Origin: Nitrospirae bacterium RBG_16_64_22
GTDB lineage: Bacteria; Nitrospirota; RBG-16-64-22
Assembly: GCA_001803795.1 (NCBI GenBank)
Contig: MHEK01000059.1
Coordinates: 1 to 42,147 of the forward strand
Direction: 5' to 3'
Length of the DNA stretch: 42,147 nucleotides
Part shown: piece by piece, positions 1,508-38,184 of the stretch
Layout: each line of letters opens with the position of its first letter
Position numbering within the stretch: the stretch's first letter is position 1
The notes under the pieces: generated by a model
The model's database searches: none
The model's input: the letters and a program-made list of their open reading frames with translations, nothing else
Told to the model about the DNA's origin: nothing
Made by a program: the position numbers and the translations under genes

Positions 1508-2512
1508 TCAGGCCTTCCCAGACGCCGAGTCCCGGACCCCCCGCAGGAACGCGGCGCTTTCTTCCGGGAGGGCCGTGTTGATGTACATCCCCGAACCCAG
1601 CTCGAACCCGGCGGCTTTCGCCACGCGGGGGACGATGGCGATGTACCAGTGGAAGTAGTCGACCTCGGCCTCATCCGGCCCCAGGGACCTGAGAACGAGA
1701 TTGTAGGGCGGATCGCCGAGGCCCAGGTAGAGCGTTCGAAGGATCTTGCCGAGGACCCGGCCAAGGTCGGCGAGGGCCTCGTCGGTGATGCTCCCGAAAC
1801 TGGCATGATGGTCCTTGGGGAAGATCCACATGTGGAAGGGAGAGAGAGCGGCGTAAGGGACGAAGGCGACAAACCGTTCGTTCTCGGCGACGATCCGCGT
1901 CCCGTCGCCCCGCTCGTCGGCGATGATCCGGCACATGAGGCACTCCCCCGAGCTGTCCAAATAGTGGATGTACTCCACCAGGCGGTCGCGGACCTGCAGG
2001 GGAACGACGGGCGTGCCGACGATCTGGGCGTGCGAGTGGGCGAGGGACGTTCCGGCCTCTTCGCCGTGGTTCTTGAAGAGAATGACGTGGCGGACGCGCG
2101 GATCGGCGTAGAGAGCGAGGAATCGGTGGCGGTACGCCGACAGGATCGGCCCGAACTCCGCCTCGGACAGGAACGCGAGATGCCCGTCGTGGCGCGGCGT
2201 TTCGACGATCACTTCGTGCCTTCCGACTCCCTCGACCGTCCTCTTGAGCCCCGTGACGAGCCGCCGAGGTTCCCCTTGTTGAGAGAGGGCCGAGAACTTG
2301 TTCGGGAAGGCGCGCACGCGCCAGGGGGTCCCGTCCCGGTATGTCTCGTCTGGCGTCCGGGCCTCCTGCCCCGGGCAGAAGGGGCACTCGTGGGACACGG
2401 GGACGCCGGCGTGATGGGACCGCTCCCGCCTGAACTCGTCCGGACGGTGCGCCCGTTCCGTGGCGATGATGACCCATTCCCGCGTGATCAAGTTGAGTCG
2501 GAGCTCGGGCAT
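1508..2512 (-). CDS. galT: galactose-1-phosphate uridylyltransferase (HIT superfamily, GalT type)
   Basis: 334 aa. Has the CPFCPG zinc motif, the HSHAQI (HxHxQ) active-site motif and the N-terminal LITREWVIIA pattern. Confidence 0.85.
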   Translation of the reverse strand: MPELRLNLITREWVIIATERAHRPDEFRRERSHHAGVPVSHECPFCPGQEARTPDETYRDGTPWRVRAFPNKFSALSQQGEPRRLVTGLKRTVEGVGRHEVIVETPRHDGHLAFLSEAEFGPILSAYRHRFLALYADPRVRHVILFKNHGEEAGTSLAHSHAQIVGTPVVPLQVRDRLVEYIHYLDSSGECLMCRIIADERGDGTRIVAENERFVAFVPYAALSPFHMWIFPKDHHASFGSITDEALADLGRVLGKILRTLYLGLGDPPYNLVLRSLGPDEAEVDYFHWYIAIVPRVAKAAGFELGSGMYINTALPEESAAFLRGVRDSASGKA

Positions 2513-2553
2513 GGCCTCACCTCTTCTTCAGTTTGCGGTTCTCAATCTTCGAC

Positions 2554-2595
2554 TTCCAAATTTCCAATTTCCAATTTCCAATTTCCAATCTACAA
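2554..2595. repeat. heptad tandem array (TTTCCAA)n, 4 perfect + 2 degenerate units
   Basis: ttccaaa tttccaa tttccaa tttccaa tttccaa tctacaa, in the divergent galT / DUF4124 promoter region. Confidence 0.9.
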
Positions 2596-2629
2596 TACAT
2601 CTGCACTCTGGCGGACAGGGAGGGAAGCC

Positions 2630-3727
2630 GTGATCGATCCATTCTCTTCGAGTTGGGGTCGGCGCTCCAAGCCGGCCATCATTCTAGCCTTTTCCCTTCT
2701 CTTTGTCGCCCTCCACCTCTTCCCCGCGTCCTCCCCCGCCGCCGAAGGCCCCGTCTACCAGTACCACGACGACGAGGGGAACGTCCACTTCACCGACGAC
2801 CCGACGAAGATCCCATTCCCGGAGAAAGCGCCCTCCGACGACAGCGACAGGGCGGACCGCAAGGCGTATCTCCGGTCCCTCCGCGCCTGGCTTCACAACA
2901 CGGGAGCGACGGGCGAAGACATCCTCCTCGTTCTCATCGGCGACCACGTCCTCGGGCAGATCCGGACGGACGAATCGGTCCCCGTGAAGACGGCCTTCCT
3001 CCAATCGATCGGATCGCTCCGAAACGACGTGAGAACGCATCTCGGCGTCCCCGGCGCCCTCGCCGAGCCGGGCCTCGACCAGTGGATCGACCGGGCCTCC
3101 CGGCCCGAGGGCCTCGACCCAGAAGAGGTCGATCTTCTCCGGTCCGTGCCGACGGCCAGAATCGCCCGGTCTTACGAAATTGCCCTCGCCTCTTGGACGC
3201 GCCGCGGACGCTTCGCGGAGGACTGGCGCCAATGGCGCGCGCGCCACTTCTCCTACGAGGCCGGTACGCCGACGGCCGGAGAAGACCCCAACACCATCCG
3301 GCTGGGCGTTCTGTCCAGGCTCCTTCAGGCACACGAAGCCGCGAGAGCCCTCTGGGGGCTTCGCGGCGGTTCCCGCGCCTCCGCGGTCAAGCCGCCGCGG
3401 ATACCGGCGGCTCAGGAAGCCCCCATCCTGGCCGAGGGCCGGGCGCTTCTCCGCGAGCTTGTCCGGCTCGCCGCGGAAGAAAAAGTCCCCGCGGCGGCGA
3501 ACGCGGCCCGGCACGCCTCCCTGGCGGGACCATCGCTTCAGATCGAACAGTTCTTCGGCGGCCGGGTCGTCGGTCCGACGGAATGGGCATCGAAACTTGC
3601 CTCCGCCCTCCGGGCGAACGACTACGGCCGGTTTGCGGCTCTCCTGAAGAGTCCGCCGCCCGTAAAGAACAAGCCTTCGGAAATACCCCAGGAGGAGCCC
3701 CCGAAGAGAAGGAAGAAGAAACCTTGA
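2630..3727 (+). CDS. DUF4124 domain-containing membrane-anchored protein
   Basis: GTG at 2630 is preceded by AGGGAGGGA. N-terminal hydrophobic segment AIILAFSLLFVALHLF, then VYQYHDDEGNVHFTDDP (DUF4124 signature), basic tail KRRKKKP. The first two thirds of the 808-aa track ORF is antisense to galT and is discarded. Confidence 0.65.
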   Translation: MIDPFSSSWGRRSKPAIILAFSLLFVALHLFPASSPAAEGPVYQYHDDEGNVHFTDDPTKIPFPEKAPSDDSDRADRKAYLRSLRAWLHNTGATGEDILLVLIGDHVLGQIRTDESVPVKTAFLQSIGSLRNDVRTHLGVPGALAEPGLDQWIDRASRPEGLDPEEVDLLRSVPTARIARSYEIALASWTRRGRFAEDWRQWRARHFSYEAGTPTAGEDPNTIRLGVLSRLLQAHEAARALWGLRGGSRASAVKPPRIPAAQEAPILAEGRALLRELVRLAAEEKVPAAANAARHASLAGPSLQIEQFFGGRVVGPTEWASKLASALRANDYGRFAALLKSPPPVKNKPSEIPQEEPPKRRKKKP

Positions 3728-3760
3728 AAATTGGAAATTGTAAATTGGAAATTGTAAAGC
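3726..3760. repeat. heptad tandem array (GRAAATT)n, complementary sense to the 2554 array
   Basis: gaaaatt ggaaatt gtaaatt ggaaatt gtaaagc. It starts inside the TGA of the DUF4124 gene. The 14-nt unit ggaaattgtaaatt occurs twice. Confidence 0.9.
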
Positions 3761-3811
3761 GAAAGAACAGAGAAGAAGTTCCCCGCTTTGCGATTTACGC
3801 TTTTTGGCCAT

Positions 3812-3848
3812 CCTTTCACTTTGACATTTTCCAATTTCCAATCGCTCT
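3812..3848. repeat. degenerate heptad array ending in TTTCCAA x2
   Basis: cctttca ctttgac at tttccaa tttccaa tcgctct. Its reverse complement attggaaattg matches 3730-3740, giving an ~11-nt inverted repeat. Confidence 0.75.
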
Positions 3849-3940
3849 TGTGACCTACGCCGACCTCTTTCCTTTCCTGATTCCGACGATCCGCGTATTC
3901 CGCAAACCTTGGGGAAAGATCCGAGACAACTCTCGCCCGG

Positions 3941-3982
3941 TTGACACGAAACGAGGAAGTGTATATTTTATAGTGTATATTT
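3941..3982 (+). promoter_or_regulatory. candidate sigma70 promoter plus direct-repeat operator of the phd/vapC operon
   Basis: TTGACA 3941-3946 and an A/T-rich -10 region (tatatttt, 3962-3969). The 11-nt direct repeat AGTGTATATTT sits at 3958-3968 and 3972-3982, 19 nt before the ATG. Confidence 0.45.
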
Positions 3983-4000
3983 AACTGGGGACATCGTCTG

Positions 4001-4237
4001 ATGAGAGCAACAGCCAAGGAACTTCGAACCAGGGGCAGACAACTGATCGACGCGGTGGGCCGCGGAGAGGAGATAACGATCACCCACCGTGGAAAACCGC
4101 GCGCCAAGCTCATCCCCTTGCCTCGACGCCAGCCTCGCCGTTTGGCCGAGAGCCCTGCCTTCGGCCTCTGGAAGGACCATCCAAACGTACGCGACGTGGG
4201 TGCCTTCGTTGACAGGCTTCGCAGGAGCCGCCATTGA
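4001..4237 (+). CDS. type II antitoxin, Phd/YefM family
   Basis: 78 aa, MRATAKELRTRGRQLIDAVGRGEEITITHRGKPRAKLIPL. The stop overlaps the toxin start (TTGA). Confidence 0.8.
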   Translation: MRATAKELRTRGRQLIDAVGRGEEITITHRGKPRAKLIPLPRRQPRRLAESPAFGLWKDHPNVRDVGAFVDRLRRSRH

Positions 4238-4617
4238 CCCTGGTGGACACAGACGTCCTTGTCTGGTTCCTTCGCGGGAACCGGAAGGCCGCGGACGCGC
4301 TTGAACGACTGGACGGCTTCGCGATTTCCGCCGTCACGTACATGGAACTGGTCCAGGGGATGCGAAACAAGGAAGAGCTTCGCATCCTGCGGACCGCGAC
4401 CCGGGAGTGGCAGACCGAGACCCTTCCCCTCAACGAAGCGATCTCGAACCGGGCAGTCTTCTACGTGGAACAGCACTTCCACGAAGCGAACCTTCGTCTT
4501 GCCGACGCACTCATCGCCGCCACCGCCGTCGTGAACGGGATGCCCCTGTTCACCGGGAACATCAAGCACTACAAAATGATTTCGGACCTGTCTCTGAAGG
4601 TGTTCCGCGCCGCATGA
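4234..4617 (+). CDS. vapC: type II toxin, PIN-domain ribonuclease VapC
   Basis: 127 aa, TTG start. PIN acidic residues are in LVDTDVLV, YMELV, ADALIAAT and FTGNIKHY. Confidence 0.8.
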   Translation: MTLVDTDVLVWFLRGNRKAADALERLDGFAISAVTYMELVQGMRNKEELRILRTATREWQTETLPLNEAISNRAVFYVEQHFHEANLRLADALIAATAVVNGMPLFTGNIKHYKMISDLSLKVFRAA

Positions 4618-9795: not shown

Positions 9796-11511
9796 ATGGC
9801 TCCGTCCGCCACAGACAGGACCCCGGCCGGTCCATTGAAACCGCTGACGTGGCGGCGCGCGCCGATCGCCTTCCTGCTCGCCCTGACAGCTTTTCTCCTG
9901 ATCTTTCGCCTCGGCACGCCCGGCCTCACGGATCGGGACGAAGCCTCGTTCTCCGAGGCGGTCCGGGAGATGATCGAAGGCGGCGACTGGCTCACGCCCC
10001 ACTTCAACGGCGCGACGCGCTTCGACAAGCCGCCTCTCATCTACTACGTGATGGCCGTTCCCGTGACTGTCTTCGGTCTGTCGGAGTTCTCGCTCCGCTT
10101 CCACAGCGCAACGGCCGGCGTAGGGCTCGTCCTGCTCGTCTTCCTGTTCGCCCGCCGCCACGTCGGCCAGCGCGCCGCGATCTACTCAGCCGGGTGCCTC
10201 GCGGCGTCCCTGGGATTCCTCGTCCTGGGCCGGGCCGCCATCACCGATATGACGCTCCTGCTCCTCACGACGGGGGCTCTCTTTTCCTTCTTTCGGGCCT
10301 ACTGGTCCCCCGCGCCCAGCGGTCGTCCCTGGTACCGGCTCGCCGACGTCCTTCTGGCCCTCGCGTTTCTCGTCAAAGGACCGGTCGGCCCAATCGTCGT
10401 CTCCCTCGCGGCCACTGGCTTCCTTTTCGCCGCCGGAGGATTCAGGCGGTACGCGCGGGAAGCCCGCCCCTGGCTCTCGATCCTGATCGTCCTCGGCCTC
10501 TCCCTGCCATGGTTCGCCCTGATGCTCGCCATACACGGCCAGGCCTACGTCGACGCGGCCATGTACCACACGGTCACGAGGTACACGTCGACTCTCGGAG
10601 GGCACGGGGGAACGGTCATCTACTACTTCCCCGTCGTCCTTCTCCTCCTGTTTCCCTGGAGCATCTTCCTTCCCGGGACACTCATCGAGTCACTCAAAGG
10701 ATTCCGCGACAAGGCCCGCCGCGACGCGGTTTCTTCCTTCCCCGTATTCCTCTCGATCTGGACCGTCCTGGTCTTCGTCTTCTTCTCCCTTTCATCGACC
10801 CGGCTCCCCCACTACATTCTCCCCCTCTTTCCGGCGGCGGCGATTCTCGTGGGAACGCGCATCGCCCGCTGGGCCGAAGACCCGCCTGCGAGGCGCATAC
10901 TGCCGAGCCTCGTCGTGGCGGGCCTGGTCGGCGCCCTGCTCGCCGCCGGGGTCGCCGGCCTCGATCTCGTGTACGGGCGATACGGAGGCCTCGTCATGCG
11001 CGAGGTCCCATCCGCCCAGGCTGTCGACCTTGGCCCCTGGGGGCTGACCCTCGCCGCGATTCTCTTCGCCGGCTCGGCCGCACTCGCGTGGGCCGGTTCG
11101 CGGAGGAGATGGAACGCCGCCTGGCTCTCCGGCGTGACGGCGCTCTCCCTGGCGTTCATCACCATCGTCACGGCGATCCTCCCGGCAATAGACGCGAAGT
11201 TCCTGGCTCCAGGGAGAAACCTGGCGCGAAAAGCGGGGACGCTCGTGCCGCCGGGAGGCGCATGGGCGATCTACGAGGTCTACCGTCCGTCGTTCGTTTT
11301 CTATTCCGAGAGGCGGGTTGTCCAGATCCGGGAGGGCGAGGAGACGCGCCTTGCCGCCCGCATCTTGTCGGGGGAGGTGTCCGCCGTCCTCGCCCGGGAA
11401 TCGCGCGTCCAACGCATCAGAGAGATCGATCCGTCGTTGTCCGTCCAGGACGCTCAAGGAGGTCTCGCGCTGATGGTTAGCGCGGTTCGCGGGGAGGCAG
11501 AACCGCGATGA
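9796..11511 (+). CDS. ArnT/PMT-like polyprenyl-phosphate-sugar dependent glycosyltransferase (GT39/GT83 type)
   Basis: 571 aa, polytopic. N-terminal GLTDRDEASFSEAVREMIEGGDWLTPHFNGATRFDKPPLIYY is the family signature loop. Confidence 0.8.
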   Translation: MAPSATDRTPAGPLKPLTWRRAPIAFLLALTAFLLIFRLGTPGLTDRDEASFSEAVREMIEGGDWLTPHFNGATRFDKPPLIYYVMAVPVTVFGLSEFSLRFHSATAGVGLVLLVFLFARRHVGQRAAIYSAGCLAASLGFLVLGRAAITDMTLLLLTTGALFSFFRAYWSPAPSGRPWYRLADVLLALAFLVKGPVGPIVVSLAATGFLFAAGGFRRYAREARPWLSILIVLGLSLPWFALMLAIHGQAYVDAAMYHTVTRYTSTLGGHGGTVIYYFPVVLLLLFPWSIFLPGTLIESLKGFRDKARRDAVSSFPVFLSIWTVLVFVFFSLSSTRLPHYILPLFPAAAILVGTRIARWAEDPPARRILPSLVVAGLVGALLAAGVAGLDLVYGRYGGLVMREVPSAQAVDLGPWGLTLAAILFAGSAALAWAGSRRRWNAAWLSGVTALSLAFITIVTAILPAIDAKFLAPGRNLARKAGTLVPPGGAWAIYEVYRPSFVFYSERRVVQIREGEETRLAARILSGEVSAVLARESRVQRIREIDPSLSVQDAQGGLALMVSAVRGEAEPR

Positions 11512-12218
11512 GCATCCGTATCAGCGTCGTCATCCCGGCGCACAACGAGGGCAAAAACCTCCCCCCGCTGGCCGAGCAGACCGCCGCCGTCCTCATGGAG
11601 ATGGGCACGGAGTTCGAGATCCTTGTCGTCAACGACGGGAGCACGGACGACACCTCCGAGAGAATCAGGGAAACCGGGAGTCTGGTGCCCGAACTCCGCG
11701 AAATCCGGCTCAGGAAGAAATCGGGCCAGACGGCCGCGATCCTCGCCGGCTTTTCGCAAGCCCGCGGAGAGATCGTCATCACGATGGACGGCGACCAGCA
11801 GAACGACCCGGCCGACATCCCGAAGTTATTGGAGGCCCTCAAAGGTGCCGATGCCGCCGCCGGCTGGCGCGTTTCCCGGAAAGATCCATGGCTCACGGTT
11901 GCCGCTTCGAGGATAGCCAACGCCGTCCGCAACCGGCTGAGCGACGACTCGATCCGCGACACCGGGTGCGGCCTCAAGGCGTTTCGGCGCGAGACCCTCT
12001 CGTCCATCCCCGCCTTCAACGGAATGCACCGCTTCTTCCCGACCCTGATCCGACAGGCGGGATACAAAGTGGTCGAGGTCCCCGTCTCGCACCGTCCCCG
12101 CGCCCACGGCCAGACCCACTACTCGATCCGAAGCCGGGCGATCCGGGCCTTCGTGGACTTATTGGCCGTAAGGTGGATGAAGTCGCGGAGAATCCGCTAC
12201 GAAATTGAAGAGAAGTGA
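11508..12218 (+). CDS. family 2 glycosyltransferase, ArnC/DPM1-like polyprenyl-phosphate sugar synthase
   Basis: ATGA overlap with the ArnT-like gene. ISVVIPAHNEG, VVNDGSTD, TMDGDQQNDP (DxD) and a C-terminal membrane-associating helix. Confidence 0.8.
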   Translation: MSIRISVVIPAHNEGKNLPPLAEQTAAVLMEMGTEFEILVVNDGSTDDTSERIRETGSLVPELREIRLRKKSGQTAAILAGFSQARGEIVITMDGDQQNDPADIPKLLEALKGADAAAGWRVSRKDPWLTVAASRIANAVRNRLSDDSIRDTGCGLKAFRRETLSSIPAFNGMHRFFPTLIRQAGYKVVEVPVSHRPRAHGQTHYSIRSRAIRAFVDLLAVRWMKSRRIRYEIEEK

Positions 12219-12223
12219 GACAC

Positions 12224-12360
12224 CGTTATTGGTTATTGGTCAATCGTTATTGGTCAATCGTCATTCGCCAACCATTGACCATTGACTATTAACCATTAAC
12301 AGCTCTTGTCATTGACCATTGACCGCTCTTGCCATTGACCATTGACGATTGACTATTGAC
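12224..12360. repeat. heptad tandem array, ~19 units (CGTTATT/GGTCAAT then CATTGAC type)
   Basis: cgttatt ggttatt ggtcaat cgttatt ggtcaat cgtcatt cgccaac cattgac cattgac tattaac cattaac agctctt gt cattgac cattgac cgctctt gc cattgac cattgac gattgac tattgac. It contains a 23-nt higher-order repeat (12301-12323 / 12324-12346). Confidence 0.95.
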
Positions 12361-13645
12361 CAGCTGTGGGGATTCCGTAGGCCTCCGCCAAGAGCTGTAC
12401 GGGCGCGAGCATTTGGACGCCGACCGCCTCCTGGATCTGCCGCCCGCAGAGGGGAGCGTCCGTCACGATCCGGTCCGGCCGGTAGTGGCGGACGTTCTCG
12501 AAGAGATCAGCCCCGATCTCGAGCGACAGATCGTACGTCTTCTCCTTCATCCCGAACGCTCCGCCCATCCCACAGCAGAACGTATCGAGGTAGCCGATCG
12601 CAAGACCGGGAATCCAGCGGAGAAGATCGATCGTCTCATTCCCGATCCGCAGCGTCCGTGCGTGGCAAGCGTAGTGGTACCGAACGTCACCGCTCACGGG
12701 TCCGAGCGCCGTATCGAAGCGCCCCTGAAGGACAAGTTCTCCCAGAAAGGACGTCAGGTCCGTCACGGCCTTTGCCAGGCGGTTCGTCTCGGGGGTCGGC
12801 CAGAGGAACGGGGCATTGTTCCGCATCATGTGGACGCAGTTGCAGTCGGCGCAGACGATCCGGCGCCCCTCTTCGACGTAGGGAAGAAGCCTCGCCAGAT
12901 TCGCCTCGTGGAGCGACCGGGCCGTCTTCTCGTCCCCGATGCCGATGGACGGGAGGCCGCAGCAGTTGTGCGCGGGGACGACAACCTCCATCCCCTGGCG
13001 TTCCAGGACGGCCACGGCTGCCTGGCCGATCGCGGGATCGAAATAGTTGGCCGTACAGCCGGCAAAGTAGACGACCTCCCCTTTCGGGGCTCTCGAACTC
13101 CCCGATGTCCGCCCGCGTCTCGTTTCCGCCCAGTCGTGAAACGTCGGGCGGGCGAACCCGGGGAGCCTTCGGCGCGGATCGATCCCCGTCAAAGGCGCGG
13201 CGATCAGGCGGACGAGCGGATTGTTGACCAGGAGGTTCGAAACCGGCGCGAGCCGGCTCCCCCACCTTCCGACGGCGTCCACGCCGGCCATGAGACGCTC
13301 CTTGCGCGTCAGCCCGTTTTCGGCGTAACGTATCTTGGCTTTCATGATATGCTTGGCCAAGTCCAGGGAGCCGGGACACCGGAGTTCGCACTGACCGCAC
13401 AGGGAACAGAGCGCAAGCGCCTCGCGAAGGCCGCGATCGATCTCGCTCCTCTGTTCTTCCTGGTCTTCCAGGCCTTCCGGTAAATGACCAGGGCGGGGGG
13501 ATTGCTCGGCCTCTTCGAAAATCTTGTACAGGCGCGGAAAGGCCGCGCAGAATGTCTTACAGCGGTTGCACGAAACGCATTTGCCCGCGTGGGCCTTGAA
13601 CGAATCACCGAAAAGGACGGCCAAGGGATGGGCGGTCGGAAGCAT
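12353..13645 (-). CDS. (Fe-S)-binding oxidoreductase subunit, GlcF/GlpC/HdrD-like (helical ferredoxin + 2 CCG domains)
   Basis: 430 aa. CVSCNRCKTFC and CSLCGQCELRCP cluster motifs, then CCGLP and CCGMGGAF cysteine-rich (CCG) repeats. No partner subunit gene is adjacent. Confidence 0.75.
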   Translation of the reverse strand: MLPTAHPLAVLFGDSFKAHAGKCVSCNRCKTFCAAFPRLYKIFEEAEQSPRPGHLPEGLEDQEEQRSEIDRGLREALALCSLCGQCELRCPGSLDLAKHIMKAKIRYAENGLTRKERLMAGVDAVGRWGSRLAPVSNLLVNNPLVRLIAAPLTGIDPRRRLPGFARPTFHDWAETRRGRTSGSSRAPKGEVVYFAGCTANYFDPAIGQAAVAVLERQGMEVVVPAHNCCGLPSIGIGDEKTARSLHEANLARLLPYVEEGRRIVCADCNCVHMMRNNAPFLWPTPETNRLAKAVTDLTSFLGELVLQGRFDTALGPVSGDVRYHYACHARTLRIGNETIDLLRWIPGLAIGYLDTFCCGMGGAFGMKEKTYDLSLEIGADLFENVRHYRPDRIVTDAPLCGRQIQEAVGVQMLAPVQLLAEAYGIPTAGQ

Positions 13646-13668
13646 GCAAACTCCGTCACTGGCAAGAA

Positions 13669-13788
13669 CGGTTAATCGTCAATGGCAAAGTCGGTTAATG
13701 GCCAGCGAACGGCAAATGGCGATTGACCAATAACCAATAACGATTGACGAATAACGATTGACGATTAACCAATAGCGATCATCAATCC
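13669..13788. repeat. heptad tandem array, ~17 units (CGATTGA/CCAATAA type)
   Basis: cggttaa tcgtcaa tggcaaa gt cggttaa tggccag cgaacgg caaatgg cgattga ccaataa ccaataa cgattga cgaataa cgattga cgattaa ccaatag cgatcat caatcc. It directly abuts ATG 13789. Confidence 0.95.
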
Positions 13789-14610
13789 ATGACTTTCGAC
13801 GACGTTCGAAAACTGATCGAGAAGAAAACCTGGGACCAGGCGCTTGAAGCTGGGCGCCGCCTCGCGGCCGAAAGCAAGAAGGACGGCACGCCGCTCCTCC
13901 GGGCCGCCGAATTGTTTCTGAAAGCCGGCCGCAATCAGGAAGCGGTCGCCTGCTACACGTGGGCGGCCGACATCTTCGCCCACGCAGGCTTTCTCCTGAA
14001 GGCGATCGCCGCCACAAAACTCATCCTGAGGCTCGACCCGACAAACGCCGAGGCGCGGACTCGGCTCGACAATCTGGCCGCCCAGCACTCCGGACCCGCG
14101 TCGCGGGAGGCCCCGGCTCCTGCTCCCGCCGCCTCTTCGTCGAGGGAAGAGATGGAACCGATCGATCTCGCTCCCTCGCGCGACCCCGCAATCGGGATTC
14201 TCCCCCTCTTTCAGGGGCTTCCCGAAGAGGCGTTTCAGGACCTCGTGGGACCGATGGCCCTGCGTCAACTGCACGACGGGACTGAAATCATCCGGGAGGG
14301 GGAAACGGGGACATCTCTCTTCGTCCTCATCCACGGCGAGGTCAACGTCGAGACATCCGTCCGCGGCAAACGCGTGCATCTCGCCCGGCTCCGCGAGAAC
14401 GACTTCTTCGGCGAGATCGGCTTCCTCACGGGACAGCCGCGCACGGCCACGATCCGATCGATCGGGGCCGTGGAGATCCTGGAGCTTGACCGCGACGCCC
14501 TCACGTCTCTCGTCAGCCGTTACCCGGTCATCGCCGAACGTCTCCGGACGCTTTACATCTCCCGCGCCGAGCACACGGTGGAAATCGTCCGGAGAACGCT
14601 CAGGACGTAG
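13789..14610 (+). CDS. TPR-like N-terminal domain + cyclic nucleotide-binding domain protein
   Basis: 273 aa. The cNMP-binding beta-barrel motifs are LFQGLPEEAF...GETGTSLFVLIHGEV...FFGEIGFLTGQPRTATIRS. Confidence 0.75.
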   Translation: MTFDDVRKLIEKKTWDQALEAGRRLAAESKKDGTPLLRAAELFLKAGRNQEAVACYTWAADIFAHAGFLLKAIAATKLILRLDPTNAEARTRLDNLAAQHSGPASREAPAPAPAASSSREEMEPIDLAPSRDPAIGILPLFQGLPEEAFQDLVGPMALRQLHDGTEIIREGETGTSLFVLIHGEVNVETSVRGKRVHLARLRENDFFGEIGFLTGQPRTATIRSIGAVEILELDRDALTSLVSRYPVIAERLRTLYISRAEHTVEIVRRTLRT

Positions 14611-15486
14611 TCAGCGGCGCTTCCTCTCCCGCCTCTTGGACGAGACCCGGAACTCGTCGATGACTCTTCCGGCGGGATCGCGCAGGACCGCCGTCTCCCC
14701 TTCCGAGCTCCACGATGGAGACGGGTGCCCCCAGTAGAGACCCTCCGTCCCGCCGGCTTGTCCCGAATCCTTTCCCCAACCGGAGCCTGGGATGGGTTTC
14801 GGCGCGCTGAAGAGCATCAGACCGTACCCAGGCTTCATGATCACGCTGGGGAAAACGAAGCGATGCCCCGCCCGATCCTCGACTCCGTGTCCCTCGATAT
14901 TCGCTTCCCGGTCCGAGACGTTCACGACGCGGACGAACGGCGGGCGGCCCGAACCGGCCGGGCTCGCGCGAATGAAGGCAAAGTCGCCTACCAGCCTTTT
15001 CCAGATCCCCCGGCGGGCCGAGCGGGCGTCCCGCTGGGCCGCCAGCAGGCGGTCGTAGTGCTTGAGGTTTGGCGGGATCACCCAGACATGGGCGAAACCC
15101 TCCCGGACCAGGCGTTCGTTCACCATCGTCCCGTCTTTCCAGACGTACGCCAGCGTCCGGCCGTATCGGTCCCGCTCCTGCCGGTCGAGCTCGAAGCGAA
15201 CCCGGCTTCCCTTCACGAGCTGTTCGTTGAGCGCCCGGCTCTTCGCCGAGTACGGCTGGCCCCGTTCCGGCGCGTTGATCCCAAGATAGCGGACCTTCCG
15301 GCCGTCCGACAGGAGAATCGAGTCGCCGTCGTAGATTCGTTGAACCGTTCCGCCGAGCGGATCCGCCCGCGCACCGGAAACGGCCGGAAAGAAAACGAGG
15401 ATCGCAACGAGGAACGCGCAAACGCGGCGGAGGACGCCCTGCGCGAACAGCCCGGCCAGGTTCTGCCGTCTCACCCATTCACCCAT
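14611..15486 (-). CDS. secreted thermonuclease (SNase fold) fused to a lamin-tail-like domain
   Basis: Signal/anchor LRRVCAFLVAILVFFPAVSGARA. SNase core VQRIYDGDSILLSDGRKVRYLGINAPE...DRYGRTLAYVW...REGFAHV. C-terminal FVRVVNVSDREANIEGHGVEDRAGHRFVFP...GETAVLRDPAGRVIDEF resembles an LTD. The start lies inside an octad repeat array, so it is uncertain. Confidence 0.7.
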   Translation of the reverse strand: MGEWVRRQNLAGLFAQGVLRRVCAFLVAILVFFPAVSGARADPLGGTVQRIYDGDSILLSDGRKVRYLGINAPERGQPYSAKSRALNEQLVKGSRVRFELDRQERDRYGRTLAYVWKDGTMVNERLVREGFAHVWVIPPNLKHYDRLLAAQRDARSARRGIWKRLVGDFAFIRASPAGSGRPPFVRVVNVSDREANIEGHGVEDRAGHRFVFPSVIMKPGYGLMLFSAPKPIPGSGWGKDSGQAGGTEGLYWGHPSPSWSSEGETAVLRDPAGRVIDEFRVSSKRRERKRR

Positions 15487-15524
15487 TTACCGATTCACCG
15501 ATTCACCCATTCCCCGCTTCACCC
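15469..15524. repeat. octad tandem array (ATTCACCS)n, 7 units
   Basis: tctcaccc attcaccc atttaccg attcaccg attcaccc attccccg cttcaccc. It spans the pheT 3' end, its stop codon and the nuclease gene start. Confidence 0.9.
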
Positions 15525-18037: not shown

Positions 18038-18385
18038 CTATTCCGGCTGTGCGACCGTGACCGGCTCTGGCGCGGCCTGGCCCTTCTTGTAGAACGTAAT
18101 GCCGACCCGCTGGATGTGATCCATCACGTCCGGATCGTCGATGTCTCCAAGAATCGACAGGTCGATCGTATACGGAAGGAGCAGGTCGTCCAGTTCCTCG
18201 ATGATTCCGTACACCACCTTTAGCGTCAGATCCGCGCCGCCGCGCAGAGCGAGGTCGATATCGGACCCGTTCTTGTAGATGCCTTTGGCGCGCGAACCAT
18301 ACAGAATTGCCTCATCCACCTGAGGACAGCGGCTCAGAACCGCCGAAATCTTCTGGATGGCCGTGTCCGGCAGACCGTATTTCAT
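18038..18385 (-). CDS. minimal nucleotidyltransferase (MNT, HI0073-like)
   Basis: 115 aa from an internal ATG (MKYGLPDT...). LYGSRAKGIYKNGSDIDLAL carries the GSxxxG...DxD NTase motif. ATGA overlap with the upstream HEPN-type gene. Confidence 0.8.
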   Translation of the reverse strand: MKYGLPDTAIQKISAVLSRCPQVDEAILYGSRAKGIYKNGSDIDLALRGGADLTLKVVYGIIEELDDLLLPYTIDLSILGDIDDPDVMDHIQRVGITFYKKGQAAPEPVTVAQPE

Positions 18386-18807
18386 TCCTGTTCTTCCTTC
18401 TTCAGGTCCTCCAGCTTGATTCGGAGCGCCTCGAATTCGGTTAGATATGCGCTCCGAATGGCGGAAATGATTTGCCCGGCCGTGGCCTCGTCGTACGTGT
18501 GGGAGGTCAGATTCCTGCTCTTGACCATGTCCATCCATGTCTCGCCGTCTTGGATGAGGCCGGATCTGAAAGCGGTGCGGGTCGCGTCTTTGGAGCCATA
18601 CAAGTTCTGAACGCCGCGGCTTTCAAGAAAATCCCTCAGCGTGTTCCATGCCAGCTCATGCGTGAATTCGAAGGCCTGGATCATTCCCTGCCCCTCCAGT
18701 TTCGAGAGCGGCCGTTGCCGGGCCAGTTCCACGGCCTCCTGCAACTGGGAAAGGGCTTTGATGAAGTGATTGAAACGCTGAACCCAGCGGATGTCCTGCC
18801 TGCTCAT
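18382..18807 (-). CDS. HEPN-type nucleotidyltransferase substrate-binding protein (HI0074 family)
   Basis: 141 aa from MSRQDIRWVQRFNHFIKAL.... Rx4H motif in SRNLTSHTYD. It is paired with the MNT gene. Confidence 0.8.
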   Translation of the reverse strand: MSRQDIRWVQRFNHFIKALSQLQEAVELARQRPLSKLEGQGMIQAFEFTHELAWNTLRDFLESRGVQNLYGSKDATRTAFRSGLIQDGETWMDMVKSRNLTSHTYDEATAGQIISAIRSAYLTEFEALRIKLEDLKKEEQE

Positions 18808-18876
18808 GCGCGATCCCTCCCGGAACACCCTGCCAAGACCTTCCCTTGCCGGCCTGCGTCGCCGCGCGGTCCGGGA

Positions 18877-19905: not shown

Positions 19906-20033
19906 GGTGGCGGGGTGGCTAGGTGGTTCGGTAGTTAGGTGGTTTGGAACTTCCCATCAAATCATCACCTATCAACCCATCGACCCAACCACCCATCAAC
20001 CCGGCCGCCTGACAACCCGTCGATCCGTCGATC
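19906..20033. repeat. two-armed octad array: (GGTGGNNN)n arm then (CATCRACC)n arm
   Basis: ggtggcgg ggtggcta ggtggttc ggtagtta ggtggttt ... ccatcaaa tcatcacc tatcaacc catcgacc caaccacc catcaacc cggccgcc tgacaacc cgtcgatc cgtcgatc. It fills the whole rplT-pheS spacer. Confidence 0.9.
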
Positions 20034-20441: not shown

Positions 20442-20489
20442 ATTCACCGATTCACCCATTCACCGATTCACCGATTAACCCATTTTCCC
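20442..20489. repeat. octad tandem array (ATTCACCS)n, 6 units
   Basis: attcaccg attcaccc attcaccg attcaccg attaaccc attttccc. It ends in the rpmI stop codon. The 20-nt block attcaccgattcacccattc is identical to 15493-15512. Confidence 0.9.
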
Positions 20490-20741: not shown

Positions 20742-20773
20742 ATCAACCCATCAACCCGTCCGCCTGTCCAACC
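20742..20773. repeat. octad tandem array (ATCAACCC type), 4 units
   Basis: atcaaccc atcaaccc gtccgcct gtccaacc, 1 nt from the infC stop. Confidence 0.8.
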
Positions 20774-25421: not shown

Positions 25422-26834
25422 ATGGCCGGCGAAACGATCCTCGCCATCGACGACAGCCCCACCGTCCGAAAACTCATGGAGATGATCCTCTCCACCGAAG
25501 GGTACCGAATCATCACGGCGGCCGACGGGATGGAAGGGATCGCCAAGGCCAAGGTGGAGGAGCCGGCTGTCATTCTCGTCGACTTCGTCATGCCCAAAAT
25601 GAACGGGTTCCAGGTCTGCAAGGCGATCAAGGAGACCGCGAACCTGCAGGACACGCCGATCATCCTGGTCACGTCGAAGGGCGAAACGGTCGGCTCAAAA
25701 TTCGTCAACTTGTTGGGCATTACGGAGTACTTCACTAAGCCGTTTCAGCCGGAAGACCTCCTCGAAAGGATCCGCGAGGTGATCGACCGGTCGCCCCGGC
25801 CGCAGGCCCTGGCGGCCGCCGAGACGCTCGTCGCCGCAACCGAGACGGTCATTGAGGCCGAACCGGTCGAGGTCGCCGAAACCGTCGAAGAAACCCCGCC
25901 GGCCCCTTCCCCCGAAGCGCCCGCCCTTCCCCCTATCCCGGGACTGGAAGAGCGCGTCGAAGCCCTCGTGCGGGCCACTCTCCAGAGGTTCTTCAAGGAG
26001 GAGTTCCCGTCGATCGTCCGCTCCGTCCTCCCGGCGGGCCTCGGCTCATCGTCCGAGGCGGGCGCACAATCGGGCAAGAACGTTTCCCTCTCCGGGGATC
26101 TCTCCCTCTTCCCCCTGCCCGACATTCTCCAGCTCATTTCGATCCAGAAGAGGACCGGGTGCCTCTGGATCGGTTCCGAAGAGAACCATGCGGAGGCTTT
26201 CTTCGAGGGTGGACTCGTCGTCTTCGCCGCCCTCGAGCACAAGCCCCCGGAGGATCTCATCGGCCGTCTTCTCATGGAATCGTCCAAGATCAACGCGGCC
26301 CAGCTCCGCCACGCTCTCGCCGATTCGGAGAAGTCCGGCGTCCCGCTGGGCCAACTGCTCGTCCGCGGAAGCCTGATCACGGCGGCGGAACTCCTCAGCG
26401 TCGTCCGGATCCAGAGCCAGAGGACCGTCTATCGGGCGCTCGGCTGGAAATCGGGACGGTTCGCCTTCACCCGAGAGCCCCTGCCTGCGGCTTTCGCGGG
26501 GACCGGCCTCTCCCTCAGCGTAGACGACCTGATTCTCGAAGGCGTCCGCCGGATCGACGAGTGGCAGGTCATCTCCCAGAAACTTCCGAGCCTGAACATC
26601 ATCCTCACCCGCCTGATCTCGAACGCGGAAGAGATGGGAAAGATCAATCTGAACCCGTCCGAGCTCAAGGTCCTGCAACTCATCGACGGCAAGCGGGACA
26701 TCAAGGCAATTATCCGCGACAGCGGCATGGGCGACTTCGAGGTCTGCAAGATCCTTTACGTCCTGATGTCCACGAACCTTCTGAAAAAAGTCGGAGAAAC
26801 CGAGCGCTCACGCAGGACTCCCCAGTTTCTTTGA
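25422..26834 (+). CDS. response regulator: N-terminal receiver + Pro/Ala/Glu linker + C-terminal PATAN (DUF4388) domain
   Basis: 470 aa. REC motifs ILAIDDS...LVDFVMP...VTSKG...TKPF. The PATAN/DUF4388 signature is LSGDLSLFPLPDILQLISIQKRTGCLWI ... GQLLV. AAGGA is upstream of the ATG. Confidence 0.8.
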   Translation: MAGETILAIDDSPTVRKLMEMILSTEGYRIITAADGMEGIAKAKVEEPAVILVDFVMPKMNGFQVCKAIKETANLQDTPIILVTSKGETVGSKFVNLLGITEYFTKPFQPEDLLERIREVIDRSPRPQALAAAETLVAATETVIEAEPVEVAETVEETPPAPSPEAPALPPIPGLEERVEALVRATLQRFFKEEFPSIVRSVLPAGLGSSSEAGAQSGKNVSLSGDLSLFPLPDILQLISIQKRTGCLWIGSEENHAEAFFEGGLVVFAALEHKPPEDLIGRLLMESSKINAAQLRHALADSEKSGVPLGQLLVRGSLITAAELLSVVRIQSQRTVYRALGWKSGRFAFTREPLPAAFAGTGLSLSVDDLILEGVRRIDEWQVISQKLPSLNIILTRLISNAEEMGKINLNPSELKVLQLIDGKRDIKAIIRDSGMGDFEVCKILYVLMSTNLLKKVGETERSRRTPQFL

Positions 26835-26895
26835 CGCAGATGAGGGAAGGGGTCTTAACTCACGCTAAAATATGCGCTTTTTAACGGGCGATCCC

Positions 26896-26924
26896 TTGAC
26901 AGCCCGGGGACCCTGTGATACGGT
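26896..26924 (+). promoter_or_regulatory. candidate internal sigma70 promoter upstream of cheY
   Basis: TTGACA 26896-26901, 17-nt spacer, TACGGT 26919-26924. Confidence 0.35.
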
Positions 26925-26976
26925 TTGGCTACCGACCGCAATGCCAGGCAGTGAGTATGTTTCACCCGGAGGAATC

Positions 26977-27339
26977 ATGGCCAATATCTTGATTGCCGAC
27001 GACAGTTATTCCGAGCTCCAAATCTTCCAGGCCACCCTGGAGCCCACCGGTCACCGGCTCATCACCGTCATGGACGGCGAAGCCGCCGAGGAGAAGGTCA
27101 AGGCCGAGCCGATCAACCTCATCATCCTCGACGTCATCATGCCGAAGAAGAACGGGTTCCAGGTCTGCCGGACGCTCAAGACGGACGAAAAGTACAAGCA
27201 CATCCCGATCATCATGTGCACGCAGAAAGACCAGGACAGCGACAAGTTCTGGGGGATGAAGCAGGGCGCGGACGAGTACCTCACGAAACCCTTCAACCCC
27301 GCCGACCTTGTCCGCCTGGTCAAGAAGTACCTTTCCTGA
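26977..27339 (+). CDS. cheY: single-domain CheY-like response regulator (PilH/PixH-like)
   Basis: 120 aa from an internal ATG with GGAGGA upstream. ILIADDS, ILDVIMP, MCTQK and TKPF. Confidence 0.85.
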   Translation: MANILIADDSYSELQIFQATLEPTGHRLITVMDGEAAEEKVKAEPINLIILDVIMPKKNGFQVCRTLKTDEKYKHIPIIMCTQKDQDSDKFWGMKQGADEYLTKPFNPADLVRLVKKYLS

Positions 27340-27365
27340 TCCGCATGGGCCGGAGGGGCCTCAGG

Positions 27366-28235
27366 ATGATATCGAAGTCGATGAAGAGAACGCGAAACCC
27401 GGGAGCCGCCGCGCTCGCCGGGCTGTGCTTGTGGCTTCTTTCGCCGGCGGCGCCGGGCCGGGCCGCTGAAGAGATCGTCTGGACGGGGGAGCGTTCGATC
27501 TACTACGGCGGCCTCCAGGACGCCGCCAACGAGTTCACGCGGCTGACCAAGATCAAAGTGACGGCAATCCCGGGAGGGTGCGGGGCCGCCTCCGCCGGCG
27601 TCAAGCAAGGCAAGGTCGACGTGGGCGGCCTATGCTGCGCCATCAAGGAAGAGGAACTCTCCAAGTTCGGCTTCAAGCACTACCCCATCGGAATCGAGGG
27701 CCTTGCCATCGTCGTCCACCCCTCCAACCCGGTCAAGTCTCTCACCCAACAGCAGGTCAGGGACATTCTCACCGGCAAGATCACGAACTGGAGGGAAGTC
27801 GGCGAGAAGGACCGGCCGATCAAGGTCGTCGCCCGCCCGCATTGCACGGACCGGGAAGGGAACTGGAAGCAGATCGTTCCCGACAAGAAGCTCCTGGCCA
27901 AGGGGCGGATAGACGTCAAGGAAGACCAGGACGTCCTTCTGGCCGTGAAGGACCACGAGAACTCCATCGGCATCATCGGGCTGAACATGGTCAATCCCCG
28001 CTTCGCGCGGGCGATTGCGATCGACGGAATCGTGCCAGGGCGCCCGTCGCTCATCGACGGCACCTATCCCTGGAAGATCCAGAACTCCCTCATCCTGGCT
28101 TCGAACAGCTCCGCCGCCGCGAAGAAATTCGTCGACTTCATTCTAGGCGACGGGAGAAAGCTCCTCCACAAGGACCTGGTCTTCCTCGACGAGGTGAAGC
28201 CCGCCTCTGCCAAGAAGACCGGAAAGGGAAAGTAG
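27366..28235 (+). CDS. exported PstS-family (PBP_like_2) periplasmic substrate-binding protein, orphan
   Basis: Signal peptide AAALAGLCLWLLSPAAPGRAA. Hallmark LTQQQVRDILTGKITNWREVG of PstS-like proteins. GGAGGGG lies 7 nt before ATG 27366 (alternative ATG 27345). No ABC permease or ATPase genes are nearby. Confidence 0.7.
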   Translation: MISKSMKRTRNPGAAALAGLCLWLLSPAAPGRAAEEIVWTGERSIYYGGLQDAANEFTRLTKIKVTAIPGGCGAASAGVKQGKVDVGGLCCAIKEEELSKFGFKHYPIGIEGLAIVVHPSNPVKSLTQQQVRDILTGKITNWREVGEKDRPIKVVARPHCTDREGNWKQIVPDKKLLAKGRIDVKEDQDVLLAVKDHENSIGIIGLNMVNPRFARAIAIDGIVPGRPSLIDGTYPWKIQNSLILASNSSAAAKKFVDFILGDGRKLLHKDLVFLDEVKPASAKKTGKGK

Positions 28236-28245
28236 GCTCCGCGCG

Positions 28246-28728
28246 ATGGCCGAGTCGACATTCGTTCAGGACGCTCCCGCCGCCGAAGAGGCCTCTCTGG
28301 GCTTCTGCACTTTTCAGATCGGCGGAGAGTTCTACGGCCTGGACATTGTCCTCGTCCAGGAGGTGATCCGTTCGCAGAAGGTCTTCCCCGTACCGACGAC
28401 GCCCCCGTACGTTCTCGGCGTCATTAATCTTCGGGGAACCATCATCCCTATAGTCGACATCAAGCGCGTTCTCATGCAGACCCCCTGGCGGGAAACCCCC
28501 GACACGCGCCTTCTGATCCTTCAGCAGGATCAGACCCTTGTCGGATGGGCCGTCGACGCCGTCGGAGACATCGCGTGGCTGCCCGTCTCGCGCGTCGAGC
28601 CCTTTCAGACCCGCCGTGACGAGCCGGGGTTCAAGTACGTCGATCGGATCGGAAAGGTGTCGGAACAGACGGCGCTCGCCCTCGTTGACGGGCCTCGCCT
28701 GATTGCTGATCTTCGGATTCGAGGATAG
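28246..28728 (+). CDS. cheW: CheW-like coupling protein
   Basis: 160 aa. FQIGGEFYGLDIVLVQEVI...VLGVINLRGTIIPIVD. Confidence 0.85.
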   Translation: MAESTFVQDAPAAEEASLGFCTFQIGGEFYGLDIVLVQEVIRSQKVFPVPTTPPYVLGVINLRGTIIPIVDIKRVLMQTPWRETPDTRLLILQQDQTLVGWAVDAVGDIAWLPVSRVEPFQTRRDEPGFKYVDRIGKVSEQTALALVDGPRLIADLRIRG

Positions 28729-28761
28729 GACTCTGGCAACGGCGGCGGAAAAGAACGGACC

Positions 28762-28785
28762 GTCCGCGCCCATCTGAGCGCGGAC
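28762..28785 (+). other. perfect 8-bp GC-rich stem-loop in the cheW-mcp spacer (no U-tract)
   Basis: GTCCGCGC ccatctga GCGCGGAC. It is followed by the GGAGGAGG RBS of mcp, so a terminator is unlikely; it is possibly an mRNA processing or stability element. Confidence 0.35.
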
Positions 28786-28809
28786 AGGACCCGATCGGAG
28801 GAGGTCGTT

Positions 28810-30672: not shown

Positions 30673-30676
30673 GAGC

Positions 30677-30716
30677 GGGGGAATCGGTGCGTCGGTGAAT
30701 GGGTTGATGGGGAGAA
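30677..30716. repeat. octad tandem array (CGGTGAAT/GGGTTGAT type), 5 units
   Basis: gggggaat cggtgcgt cggtgaat gggttgat ggggagaa, starting 4 nt after the mcp stop. It is the G-rich complement of the ATTCACCG/ATCAACCC arrays. Confidence 0.8.
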
Positions 30717-30764
30717 TCCAGCCCCCCAACCACCCGGCCGCCCGGTTCTTCGATCGGAGCGTGA

Positions 30765-33281: not shown

Positions 33282-33315
33282 GAGGCGCGGCTTCGACGCG
33301 CTTGGAGACCCGTTC

Positions 33316-33777
33316 ATGCCCGAGACATCCTCATCCGGCCCCGGACGCCTTGTCCTCTTCAATCTCGACGCCCAGCATTTCGGCTTCCGGATCGACAACC
33401 TGATCGAGATCGGGACCGTGGGGGCCGTTCGCCCCGCGTCCGATCTTCCCGGCTACGTTTCCGGAATCACGCTGTCGCGAGGGCGCGAAGTGGCGATTCT
33501 CGACCTCCGCTCCATCCTCGGCCTGCCGGCGCGCCGCCTTTCCCCATCCACGCCTCTCATCGTCATGCGCATCGGTGCCCAAGCCCTCGGGATCGCCGTG
33601 GACGCCGTTTCCAATATCCACACCGCTCCCGGAACGTGGCACCCGTTCCCAGCGGGCGCCGTGCCCGAAGACCGCAACCCGTATACGGCCGTCACGCGAA
33701 TCGACGACGACCTCCTTTTGATCCTGGATGAGCAGATGCTCCTGCCCATCGCCCGCGCCGTCAAAAAAGCCGCATGA
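33316..33777 (+). CDS. cheW: CheW-like coupling protein
   Basis: 153 aa. LVLFNLDAQHFGFRIDNLIEI...VSGITLSRGREVAILDL. Confidence 0.8.
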   Translation: MPETSSSGPGRLVLFNLDAQHFGFRIDNLIEIGTVGAVRPASDLPGYVSGITLSRGREVAILDLRSILGLPARRLSPSTPLIVMRIGAQALGIAVDAVSNIHTAPGTWHPFPAGAVPEDRNPYTAVTRIDDDLLLILDEQMLLPIARAVKKAA

Positions 33778-34235: not shown

Positions 34236-34259
34236 CCCGTCCGCATTCGGCGGAAAGGA

Positions 34260-38162: not shown

Positions 38163-38184
38163 GAGTTGAAAGTTGAAGGGTGAA
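38157..38184. repeat. heptad tandem array (AGTTGAA)n, 4 units
   Basis: agttgag agttgaa agttgaa gggtgaa. It includes the rlmN stop codon. Confidence 0.85.

Follow-up and report, generated by a model that had tools for sequence, protein, structure and literature searches.

Is a gene that sits between inverted repeats free to be flipped or excised, or is it an ordinary resident with repetitive borders? This question is raised by the 42,147-nt contig MHEK01000059.1 of Nitrospirae bacterium RBG_16_64_22 (assembly GCA_001803795.1), which we analysed over its whole length and refer to as the window. In it, a gene for a GlpC-like Fe-S protein (12353-13645, minus strand) lies between two spacers filled with tandem 7-nt repeats (heptads), and a first-pass annotation had read this geometry as that of an invertible or excisable cassette, or of a gene insulated by structured DNA. 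Our analysis indicates that the two blocks are probably intergenic long simple-sequence repeats (SSRs) with ATTGAC-core 7-nt units, prone to slippage, that surround a resident gene and form no cassette. Such fast-changing arrays are characteristic of this Nitrospirota lineage from groundwater, and we saw no indication that the gene can be flipped or excised.

Composite arrays in the two flanking spacers

We built the gene map of the window from the GC content of third codon positions (GC3) and Pfam, and called tandem arrays with Tandem Repeats Finder (TRF). To the left, the GlpC-like gene is convergent with an ArnC-like GT2 glycosyltransferase gene (11508-12218, plus strand; Pfam Glycos_transf_2, 6.3e-28); to the right, it is divergent from a gene for a cyclic-nucleotide (cNMP)-binding protein (13789-14610, plus strand; Pfam cNMP_binding, 3.4e-21). 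It had been described as the only minus-strand gene between two plus-strand blocks. It does stand alone between plus-strand genes, but the second block consists of the cNMP gene only, and minus-strand genes begin again at 14611.

Both spacers are composites of two sub-arrays. In the left spacer, the distal sub-array (12224-12267) begins 6 nt past the GT2 stop codon and alternates GTTATTG and GTCAATC heptads, with a 14-mer unit, GTTATTGGTCAATC, present in ~2.4 copies (TRF periods 7, 14 and 21). A short junction, CGCCAAC, separates it from the gene-adjacent sub-array (12271-12362; TRF period 7 with 12.6 copies and period 23 with 2.6 copies; matches to ATTGACNATTGAC), which has the opposite polarity and in which CATTGAC heptads are broken by CCGCTCTTGCC-like inserts into a 23-nt super-period. 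The final units of this sub-array run into the GlpC-like gene, covering its stop codon and final two sense codons. In the right spacer, the gene-adjacent sub-array (13654-13699; TRF period 23) contains GTCAATG-type heptads with a 23-nt super-period (CGTCAATGGCAAAAACGGTTAAT) and is an inverted copy of 12293-12339 (47 nt, 81%), while the distal sub-array (13720-13779; TRF periods 7, 14 and 21) is made of a 14-mer unit, AATAACGATTGACS, reverse-complementary to that on the left. The two blocks reported earlier are therefore real, except that the right array starts ~15 nt earlier and ends ~9 nt earlier than had been given. Read from left to right, the layout is 14-mers, heptads, the gene, reverse-complemented heptads and reverse-complemented 14-mers, and the inverted similarity between the spacers extends over 63 nt at 75%, 47 nt at 83%, 47 nt at 81% and 42 nt at 88% complementarity. 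One composite element is present in both spacers, as a pair of inverted paralogues.

This arrangement accounts for the repeats that had drawn attention to the locus. Because each spacer carries two sub-arrays of opposite polarity, each forms an imperfect long palindrome, and because both polarities are present in each of these inverted paralogues, direct as well as inverted matches occur between them, the reported 23-bp exact inverted repeat included. We recovered this repeat as described: CGTTATTGGTTATTGGTCAATCG at 12224-12246 on the plus strand, comprising three heptads and one base on each side, returns on the minus strand at 13720-13742 with 0 mismatches, and the adjoining bases are unpaired. 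The direct attgacgatt-type match was likewise found; the 10-mer ATTGACGATT is the longest stretch that the two spacers share in direct orientation, and direct matches overall measure just 10-13 nt.

The number of exact 23-mer matches expected from whole-window shuffles was 0.00. When we permuted the order of the heptads within the distal sub-arrays (six on the left, eight on the right), an inverted match of at least 23 nt arose in ~17% of trials, and the 23-mer is therefore significant against random sequence only. Its left copy occupies the outer end of the left distal sub-array and its right copy the inner end of the right one, so the two copies are not positional counterparts. The exact 23-mer was found in none of the 129 loci examined, relatives included.

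The spacers have a GC content of 0.44-0.45, against 0.64 for the window, and as DNA they fold into long imperfect hairpins (z = -3.4 on the left and -2.4 on the right, relative to dinucleotide-preserving shuffles). Parsed into heptads, their units are non-palindromic 7- and 14-mers, unlike the 20-40-nt palindromes of repetitive extragenic palindromic (REP) sequences, and as tandem head-to-tail units with TRF periods of 7, 14, 21 and 23 they fall within the definition of long SSRs (5-11-nt units). At the gathering threshold, Rfam returned tRNA-Val only, and the arrays matched no family.

The right array fills the entire spacer of the divergent pair, so the promoters of both genes must lie inside it, as the first-pass annotation had held. 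That annotation also had the array directly abutting the cNMP start codon; the distal sub-array in fact stops 9 nt before the ATG, while the absence of a visible Shine-Dalgarno (SD) sequence ahead of this ATG held up on inspection of the sequence. In the spacer comparison, the start codon and the N-terminus MTFD of the cNMP protein were kept in relatives, including one that has no arrays.

Our statements on recombinase, transposase and partner genes rest on Pfam scans of the main open reading frames (ORFs) of the 42-kb window. Among the ORFs tested, we found no recombinase, transposase or integrase, in agreement with the earlier observation that a recombinase is lacking there, and no Y1 transposase or REP-associated tyrosine transposase (RAYT) type of gene was seen. 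Target-site duplications and fixed ends were also absent from the arrays, which run from codon to codon with variable ends. Given how the units are built and that associated genes are lacking, we rejected readings of the arrays as REP sequences or bacterial interspersed mosaic elements (BIMEs), as MITEs (miniature transposable elements with inverted repeats), as integron cassettes and as CRISPR-like repeats.

The gene and its arrays in related genomes

As relatives, we used three Logan protein clusters (82-86% identity) and two metagenome-assembled genomes (MAGs) from a genome collection. The latter are L004, a groundwater "Nitrospirae bacterium" MAG whose GlpC-like protein has 86% amino acid identity to that of the window, and L005, a "Nitrospiria bacterium" MAG from the Hainich groundwater site (80%). 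L004 and L005 are colinear with the window over ~1.6-18 kb at 84-89% nucleotide identity without inversion, and two short contigs consistent with the window arrangement, L001 and L002, carry the same divergent cNMP/GlpC-like pair. In the window, L001, L002, L004 and L005, the GlpC-like gene has one orientation and one position, as judged from consensus assemblies rather than reads. Nucleotide identity of the gene is 99.8% between L003 and L004, 95.6% between L002 and L005, 89.6% between the window and L004, and 86.6% between the window and L001.

The arrays behave differently. Their composite architecture is common to the window, L004, L005 and the right side of L002, yet every copy number differs. 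The 14-mer is present in 2.4 copies in the window versus 10.4 in L004 (97% matches), and GGTCAAT units, few in the window, number ~17 in L005. Exact inverted matches between left and right spacers reach at most 23 nt in the window, compared with 55 nt in L004 and 16 nt in L005, and spacer lengths range from 118 to 221 nt among array-bearing loci, compared with 66 nt in the repeat-free L001. The L003 contig breaks within arrays at both ends. On the 3′ side of the L002 gene (2310-2360), a CAATTTC/CAATTTA family replaces the ATTGAC family; it is the family found in the window at 2543-2596 and 3724-3758. This swap separates L002 from L005 despite GlpC-like genes that are 95.6% identical. These results indicate that the arrays turn over fast in length and even in family. 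The synteny comparison thus returned the very pattern that the first-pass annotation had named as counting against a cassette, namely a fixed arrangement in relatives with freely diverging repeats, and the cassette reading fails on it.

L001 provides a further comparison. Its GlpC-like protein has 84% amino acid identity to that of the window, but its locus has no arrays: the cNMP/GlpC-like spacer consists of 66 bp of unrelated, non-repetitive sequence, and there is no left spacer, since the GlpC-like gene overlaps the convergent GT2 gene. Because L001 keeps the gene without them, the arrays are dispensable. In a neighbour-joining tree rooted with a homologue of 49% identity (P0004), L001 nests within the array-bearing clade with 71.5% bootstrap; the rooting has moderate support. 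This placement suggests that a loss of arrays in L001 is somewhat likelier than a late gain elsewhere. In L001, the GT2 and PMT genes (2193-4511) share just 31% and 36% identity with their window counterparts (9796-12218), whereas the cNMP and GlpC-like genes share 82-84%. The left flank of L001 was therefore exchanged, and the breakpoint falls where the left spacer lies, at the 3′ end of the GlpC-like gene. The swapped-in GT2/PMT pair represents functionally analogous glycosylation genes.

We also looked for homogenisation of left and right arrays within genomes. Shared 10-mers were no more frequent within than between genomes, and the comparison therefore gives no evidence of concerted evolution. 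When folded as RNA, the array spacers of all relatives had z values of -3 to -10 relative to mononucleotide shuffles, with the exception of one strand of the L004 left spacer (-1.4); the array-free spacer of L001 had a z value near 0. The cNMP gene of L004 (1355-2100) aligns to the window protein in two pieces, residues 1-36 and 47-274, a pattern suggestive of a frameshift, indel or assembly error close to its 5′ end, beside the array.

The window gene encodes 430 aa, with an N-terminal 4Fe-4S dicluster domain followed by two CCG domains (Pfam Fer4_8 and CCG, 9.8e-21). Of the NCBIfam models for GlpC, NF008369 was passed barely (282.9 bits against a cut-off of 278) and TIGR03379 was far from its cut-off (185.4 against 279.9); for this reason, we consider GlpC-like the best name for the predicted product. 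Neither glpA/glpB nor another flavoprotein partner gene was found in the window, consistent with the earlier remark that a partner subunit is missing. Orthologues with 80-86% amino acid identity occupy the same position in all such relatives that show a flank, and the gene is an ordinary, stable and vertically inherited resident of a housekeeping region. In protein databases, identity falls from 82-86% in the three Logan clusters to 49%, and exact-protein look-ups of the window GlpC-like, cNMP and GT2 proteins returned no further assemblies of the same species on record. The distant homologues P0004 (49%) and P0006 (38%) lie in unrelated neighbourhoods without arrays, and were therefore used as tree outgroup only. 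In L127 (8646-11281), a 38%-identical homologue lies directly 3′ of a Pyr_redox_2/Rubredoxin_C flavoprotein gene in a molybdopterin-oxidoreductase cluster, a context that, by analogy, hints at the type of partner the lone window protein might have.

Two parts of the protein vary. Its C-terminal residues change with the adjoining sequence (GIPTAGQ*, GISTTVNS..., GIEESEIS... and GHSA*), and in the window they are set by the adjoining array; in L002, the replacement array gives the protein another C-terminal tail. Variation is also seen in the linker that joins the Fer4 and CCG domains. The window has a CTGGTCTTC repeat in three copies at 13451-13478, and L003 and L004 share an insertion rich in G/C homopolymers in the same linker (~260-345 in L003), which accounts for their protein length of 443 aa versus 430.

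Repeat arrays elsewhere and in known systems

Arrays of 7- or 8-nt units are not confined to this gene, being present in ~11 of the ~25 spacers of the window. A TTCCAAT heptad array (2543-2596) lies upstream of a DUF4124 gene (2630-3727). It is followed beyond that gene by a TTGGAAA/TTGTAAA array (3724-3758), the reverse complement of the TTCCAAT family, and by two TTTCCAA units at 3828-3842. The stretch 3724-3842 is thus another two-part spacer with sub-arrays of opposite polarity, and an inverted pair of the TTCCAAT family brackets the single DUF4124 gene. An octad family (TCACCCAT, CCCATCAA, ATTCACCG and ATCAACCC) occupies the spacers within the thrS-infC-rpmI-rplT-pheS-pheT cluster, as well as the junction of pheT with an SNase-like gene. 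Its arrays include TCACCCAT units at 15471-15524, spanning the pheT stop and the start of the SNase-like gene; ATTCACCG units at 20442-20484, between rpmI and rplT; and a two-part array of GGTGGNNN and then CCCATCAA units at 19906-20033, between rplT and pheS. Two sub-arrays that run in opposite polarities are again seen in the rplT-pheS spacer, whose RNA fold, a strong hairpin, has z = -3.45 relative to dinucleotide-preserving shuffles. In E. coli, a pheST attenuator lies at this position. Every spacer from infC to pheS holds octads (infC-rpmI at 20742-20757, rpmI-rplT and rplT-pheS), which are G/U-rich on the mRNA strand. An AAGTTGA array was found at 38156-38184.

When we examined the distribution of these families, each proved to be local. 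TTCCAAT units occur only at 2.5-3.8 kb, ATTGAC units only at 12.2-13.8 kb and C-rich octads at 15.5-20.8 kb, with one weak octad array outside this zone (~30690-30745) in the spacer between a methyl-accepting chemotaxis protein (MCP) gene and the gene for a CheA-like kinase. As adjacent spacers carry one family, the sharing suggests short-range copying.

We then scanned metagenomes with the pattern ATTGACNATTGACNATTGAC and obtained at least 120 matching loci, with a GC content of 31-69%. Of the 120 listed loci, 16 have an inverted partner array within 300 bp, typically an (ATTGACG)n array, a short loop and a (CGTCAAT)n array. Among the matches listed, there are also six loci in which same-family arrays bracket 0.4-2.5 kb, or about one or two genes, three of them inverted and three direct. 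In one unrelated soil-metagenome contig (L026, 1-609), (ATTGACG)5 and (CGTCAAT)6 stand inverted around a gene whose 133-aa product is a 23S-rRNA-intervening-sequence protein of the four-helix-bundle type (Pfam PF05635, 4e-16). Among the 129 loci examined, the present locus alone has the double 14-mer unit. The alternative reading of a gene insulated by structured DNA is compatible with both spacers being hairpin-prone quasi-palindromes, but the geometry is not peculiar to the GlpC-like gene, because same-family arrays also bracket the DUF4124 gene and stretches in unrelated contigs, in either orientation.

Other features of the window are noted here for completeness. Between pheT and pheS, a nucleotidyltransferase gene (Polbeta/NTP_transf_2) and an NTase_sub_bind (HEPN-like) gene (18038-18828) split the usual pheST pair; the two resemble a toxin-antitoxin module. 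A PIN-domain (VapC-like) gene lies at 4234-4617 with a small ORF before it, and three AGTGTAT copies upstream of it (3958-3979) resemble an operator or promoter more than they do the heptad arrays. A chemotaxis-like cluster (25422-35636) contains response regulators (one with DUF4388), a PBP-like protein gene, three CheW-domain genes, an MCP gene and a gene for a CheA-like kinase with a receiver domain.

Among known systems, the closest match to the present arrays is the GGGAATC heptamer of Xanthomonas campestris and X. axonopodis, of which each genome has 70-75 paired inverted arrays (Rehm et al. 2015, PMC4692102). These are dispersed over the chromosome, and pairs on opposite strands could form stem-loops or cruciforms (PMC4692102). 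As in the present case, the host genome is GC-rich (~65%), and the tandem heptamers are intergenic and not conserved in length between close relatives (PMC4692102). Paired inverted arrays of the same unit, as in Xanthomonas, are present in both spacers of our locus. The Xanthomonas unit is G-rich and quadruplex-forming, whereas the present units are AT-rich, with an ATTGAC core and no G-tracts. Our arrays also differ in having 14- and 23-nt super-units, several unrelated families within 42 kb and a Nitrospirota host. Paired heptamer sites on opposite strands have also been described in Geobacter metallireducens (PMC2700814). Heptamers are the most abundant class of prokaryotic long SSRs, with slippage as the proposed source (summarised in PMC4679880).

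Cyanobacteria contain 7-bp short tandemly repeated repetitive (STRR) sequences, which form intergenic hairpins and have no known function (PMC2670836). The likeness covers tandem 7-bp intergenic units, several families per genome and hairpins where arrays of opposite polarity adjoin, which in the STRR case is seen at hupS/hupL; phylum, base composition and unit sequences differ. The STRR2 unit is TTGGTCA, a string that appears also to lie inside the present 14-mer, which may be coincidence. TAACTGA direct repeats are known from marine Beggiatoaceae, Cyanobacteria and Bacteroidetes (MacGregor 2015, PMC4679880). Like the present arrays, they are intergenic, lie a few nucleotides from start codons, also occur in ribosomal-protein operons and often lack an SD; relatives have shorter, repeat-free spacers between the same flanking genes, and contigs break inside the repeats. 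They belong mostly to one family, in direct orientation and in 2-6 copies, whereas the present arrays comprise multiple families, paired inverted sub-arrays and super-units. In Haemophilus influenzae, the 7-nt ATCTTTC repeat of hmw belongs to a long RNA hairpin, and expression is set by the number of repeat copies (PMC12721329). There, as here, a heptanucleotide array lies between promoter and start codon. The hmw array has a single orientation and a demonstrated RNase III-dependent phase variation, while the arrays described here are known from sequence alone.

Enterobacterial REP units are 20-40-nt imperfect palindromes linked to RAYT transposases. The present arrays resemble REP/BIME elements in being extragenic, alternating in orientation, forming hairpins and lying between convergent genes and in operons, but their units are tandem 7-mers and no RAYT was seen in the window. 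Taken together, the present arrays differ from known systems in their AT-rich ATTGAC unit, their 14- and 23-nt super-units, the local clustering of coexisting families and the phylum of their host.

Explanations for the arrays

On the reading of the blocks as slippage-prone long SSRs around a resident gene, the arrays grow, shrink and are replaced, as the relatives show, presumably through replication slippage together with strand-switching or recombination, and either of the latter two would give rise to the inverted halves. The gene stays fixed in place and orientation while the arrays change, and no inversion, excision or dedicated recombinase would be involved. When single-stranded or transcribed, the arrays would fold into long imperfect hairpins, and hairpins between convergent genes might act as terminator-like or insulating structures. 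The right array necessarily carries the promoters and 5′ leaders of the GlpC-like/cNMP pair, and for this reason changes in copy number could modulate expression.

Several observations weigh against this account. The composite inverted structure and the ATTGAC core are kept across lineages that differ by 10-16% in gene nucleotide sequence, which is not an obvious outcome of purely neutral slippage; the arrays may therefore be subject to some selection or to a copying mechanism. Array families cluster locally within the window. A scan of 12100-13900 for sigma-70 promoters and intrinsic terminators found nothing in the right array; its single promoter-like site is antisense within the left array, counts were not above those in shuffles, and inspection for sigma-54 or leaderless -10 motifs yielded nothing convincing. 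Array frequency in the source genome was judged from a single 42-kb window, from which their genome-wide commonness is extrapolated. In addition, low-frequency RecA-mediated inversion between arrays, for which L004 offers a 55-nt exact repeat, may occur and would be compatible with the consensus assemblies. A different account of the composites, which we regard as doubtful, takes them to be selected lineage-specific cis-elements (hairpin or cruciform insulators, or binding arrays for heptad-reading proteins) or recombination hot spots that border exchangeable gene blocks; the hot-spot version is suggested by the replacement of GT2-PMT exactly at the left spacer in L001 and by the swapped array family in L002.

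Of the rival explanations, a role as functional cis-regulatory or structural arrays is the one we would grant some, if limited, likelihood. The arrays would then be selected elements, either binding sites for a lineage-specific protein or RNA or DNA hairpins acting as terminators, insulators or mRNA stabilisers, with slippage tuning or phase-varying the divergent genes, and the (GATTGACCAATAAC)n arrays may be the candidate target of a heptad-reading protein. Four lineages retain the arrays' position, unit core and polarity, hairpin potential is conserved, the whole divergent promoter region is filled by arrays whose copy number differs between relatives, and precedents exist in the heptamer hairpin of the hmw 5′ untranslated region (PMC12721329) and in STRR hairpins (PMC2670836). 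Set against these points, L001 has the same genes and no arrays, L002 has exchanged one array for another family, and the arrays match neither an Rfam family nor a promoter- or terminator-like consensus, the sole promoter-like site being the antisense one on the left. It seems improbable that a mobile composite of MITE- or REPIN-like type is responsible, that is, a ~130-bp hairpin element inserted independently into both spacers in opposite orientations, with other families inserted elsewhere. Such an element would fit the inverted paralogy of the spacers, the different families in homologous spacers of the close relatives L002 and L005, the resemblance of the left-side family of L002 to the window arrays at 2543-2596 and 3724-3758, and the recurrence of inverted pairs in unrelated contigs. 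It fits poorly with arrays that lack defined ends and target-site duplications, overlap coding ends and differ in length in every genome, with a double 14-mer unit restricted to this locus among the 129, and with a window in which no transposase or RAYT-type gene was found.

The cassette itself, in which recombination between the flanking repeats would flip or remove the GlpC-like gene, we judge to be very improbable. The gene does lie between inverted repeats (exact over 23 nt in the window and over 55 nt in L004), together with short direct matches of 10 nt, and given the lengths on which RecA acts, a 55-nt repeat would probably suffice for occasional homologous recombination. Yet the gene keeps a single orientation and position in the window, L001, L002, L004 and L005, it is present in L001 where there are no arrays, and the repeats diverge freely, with the 23-mer not conserved. 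No recombinase was found in the window, the direct matches amount to merely 10-13 nt, and the same geometry surrounds other genes with random relative orientation.

For the GlpC-like gene, the preferred reading as slippage-prone intergenic SSRs changes little: it is a resident Fe-S protein gene with no sign of being a switchable cassette. What the locus brings to view is the repeats themselves. In this uncultured groundwater lineage, family-specific arrays of 7- or 8-nt units fill roughly half of the spacers in the window and are often built as inverted pairs, and these arrays enter even the ribosomal-protein/tRNA-synthetase cluster, abut start and stop codons and break short-read assemblies. 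Their practical weight lies in the assembly and annotation of such MAGs, and through them the heptamer repeats of prokaryotes gain a new phylum, together with an AT-rich unit that is organised into 14- and 23-nt super-units.

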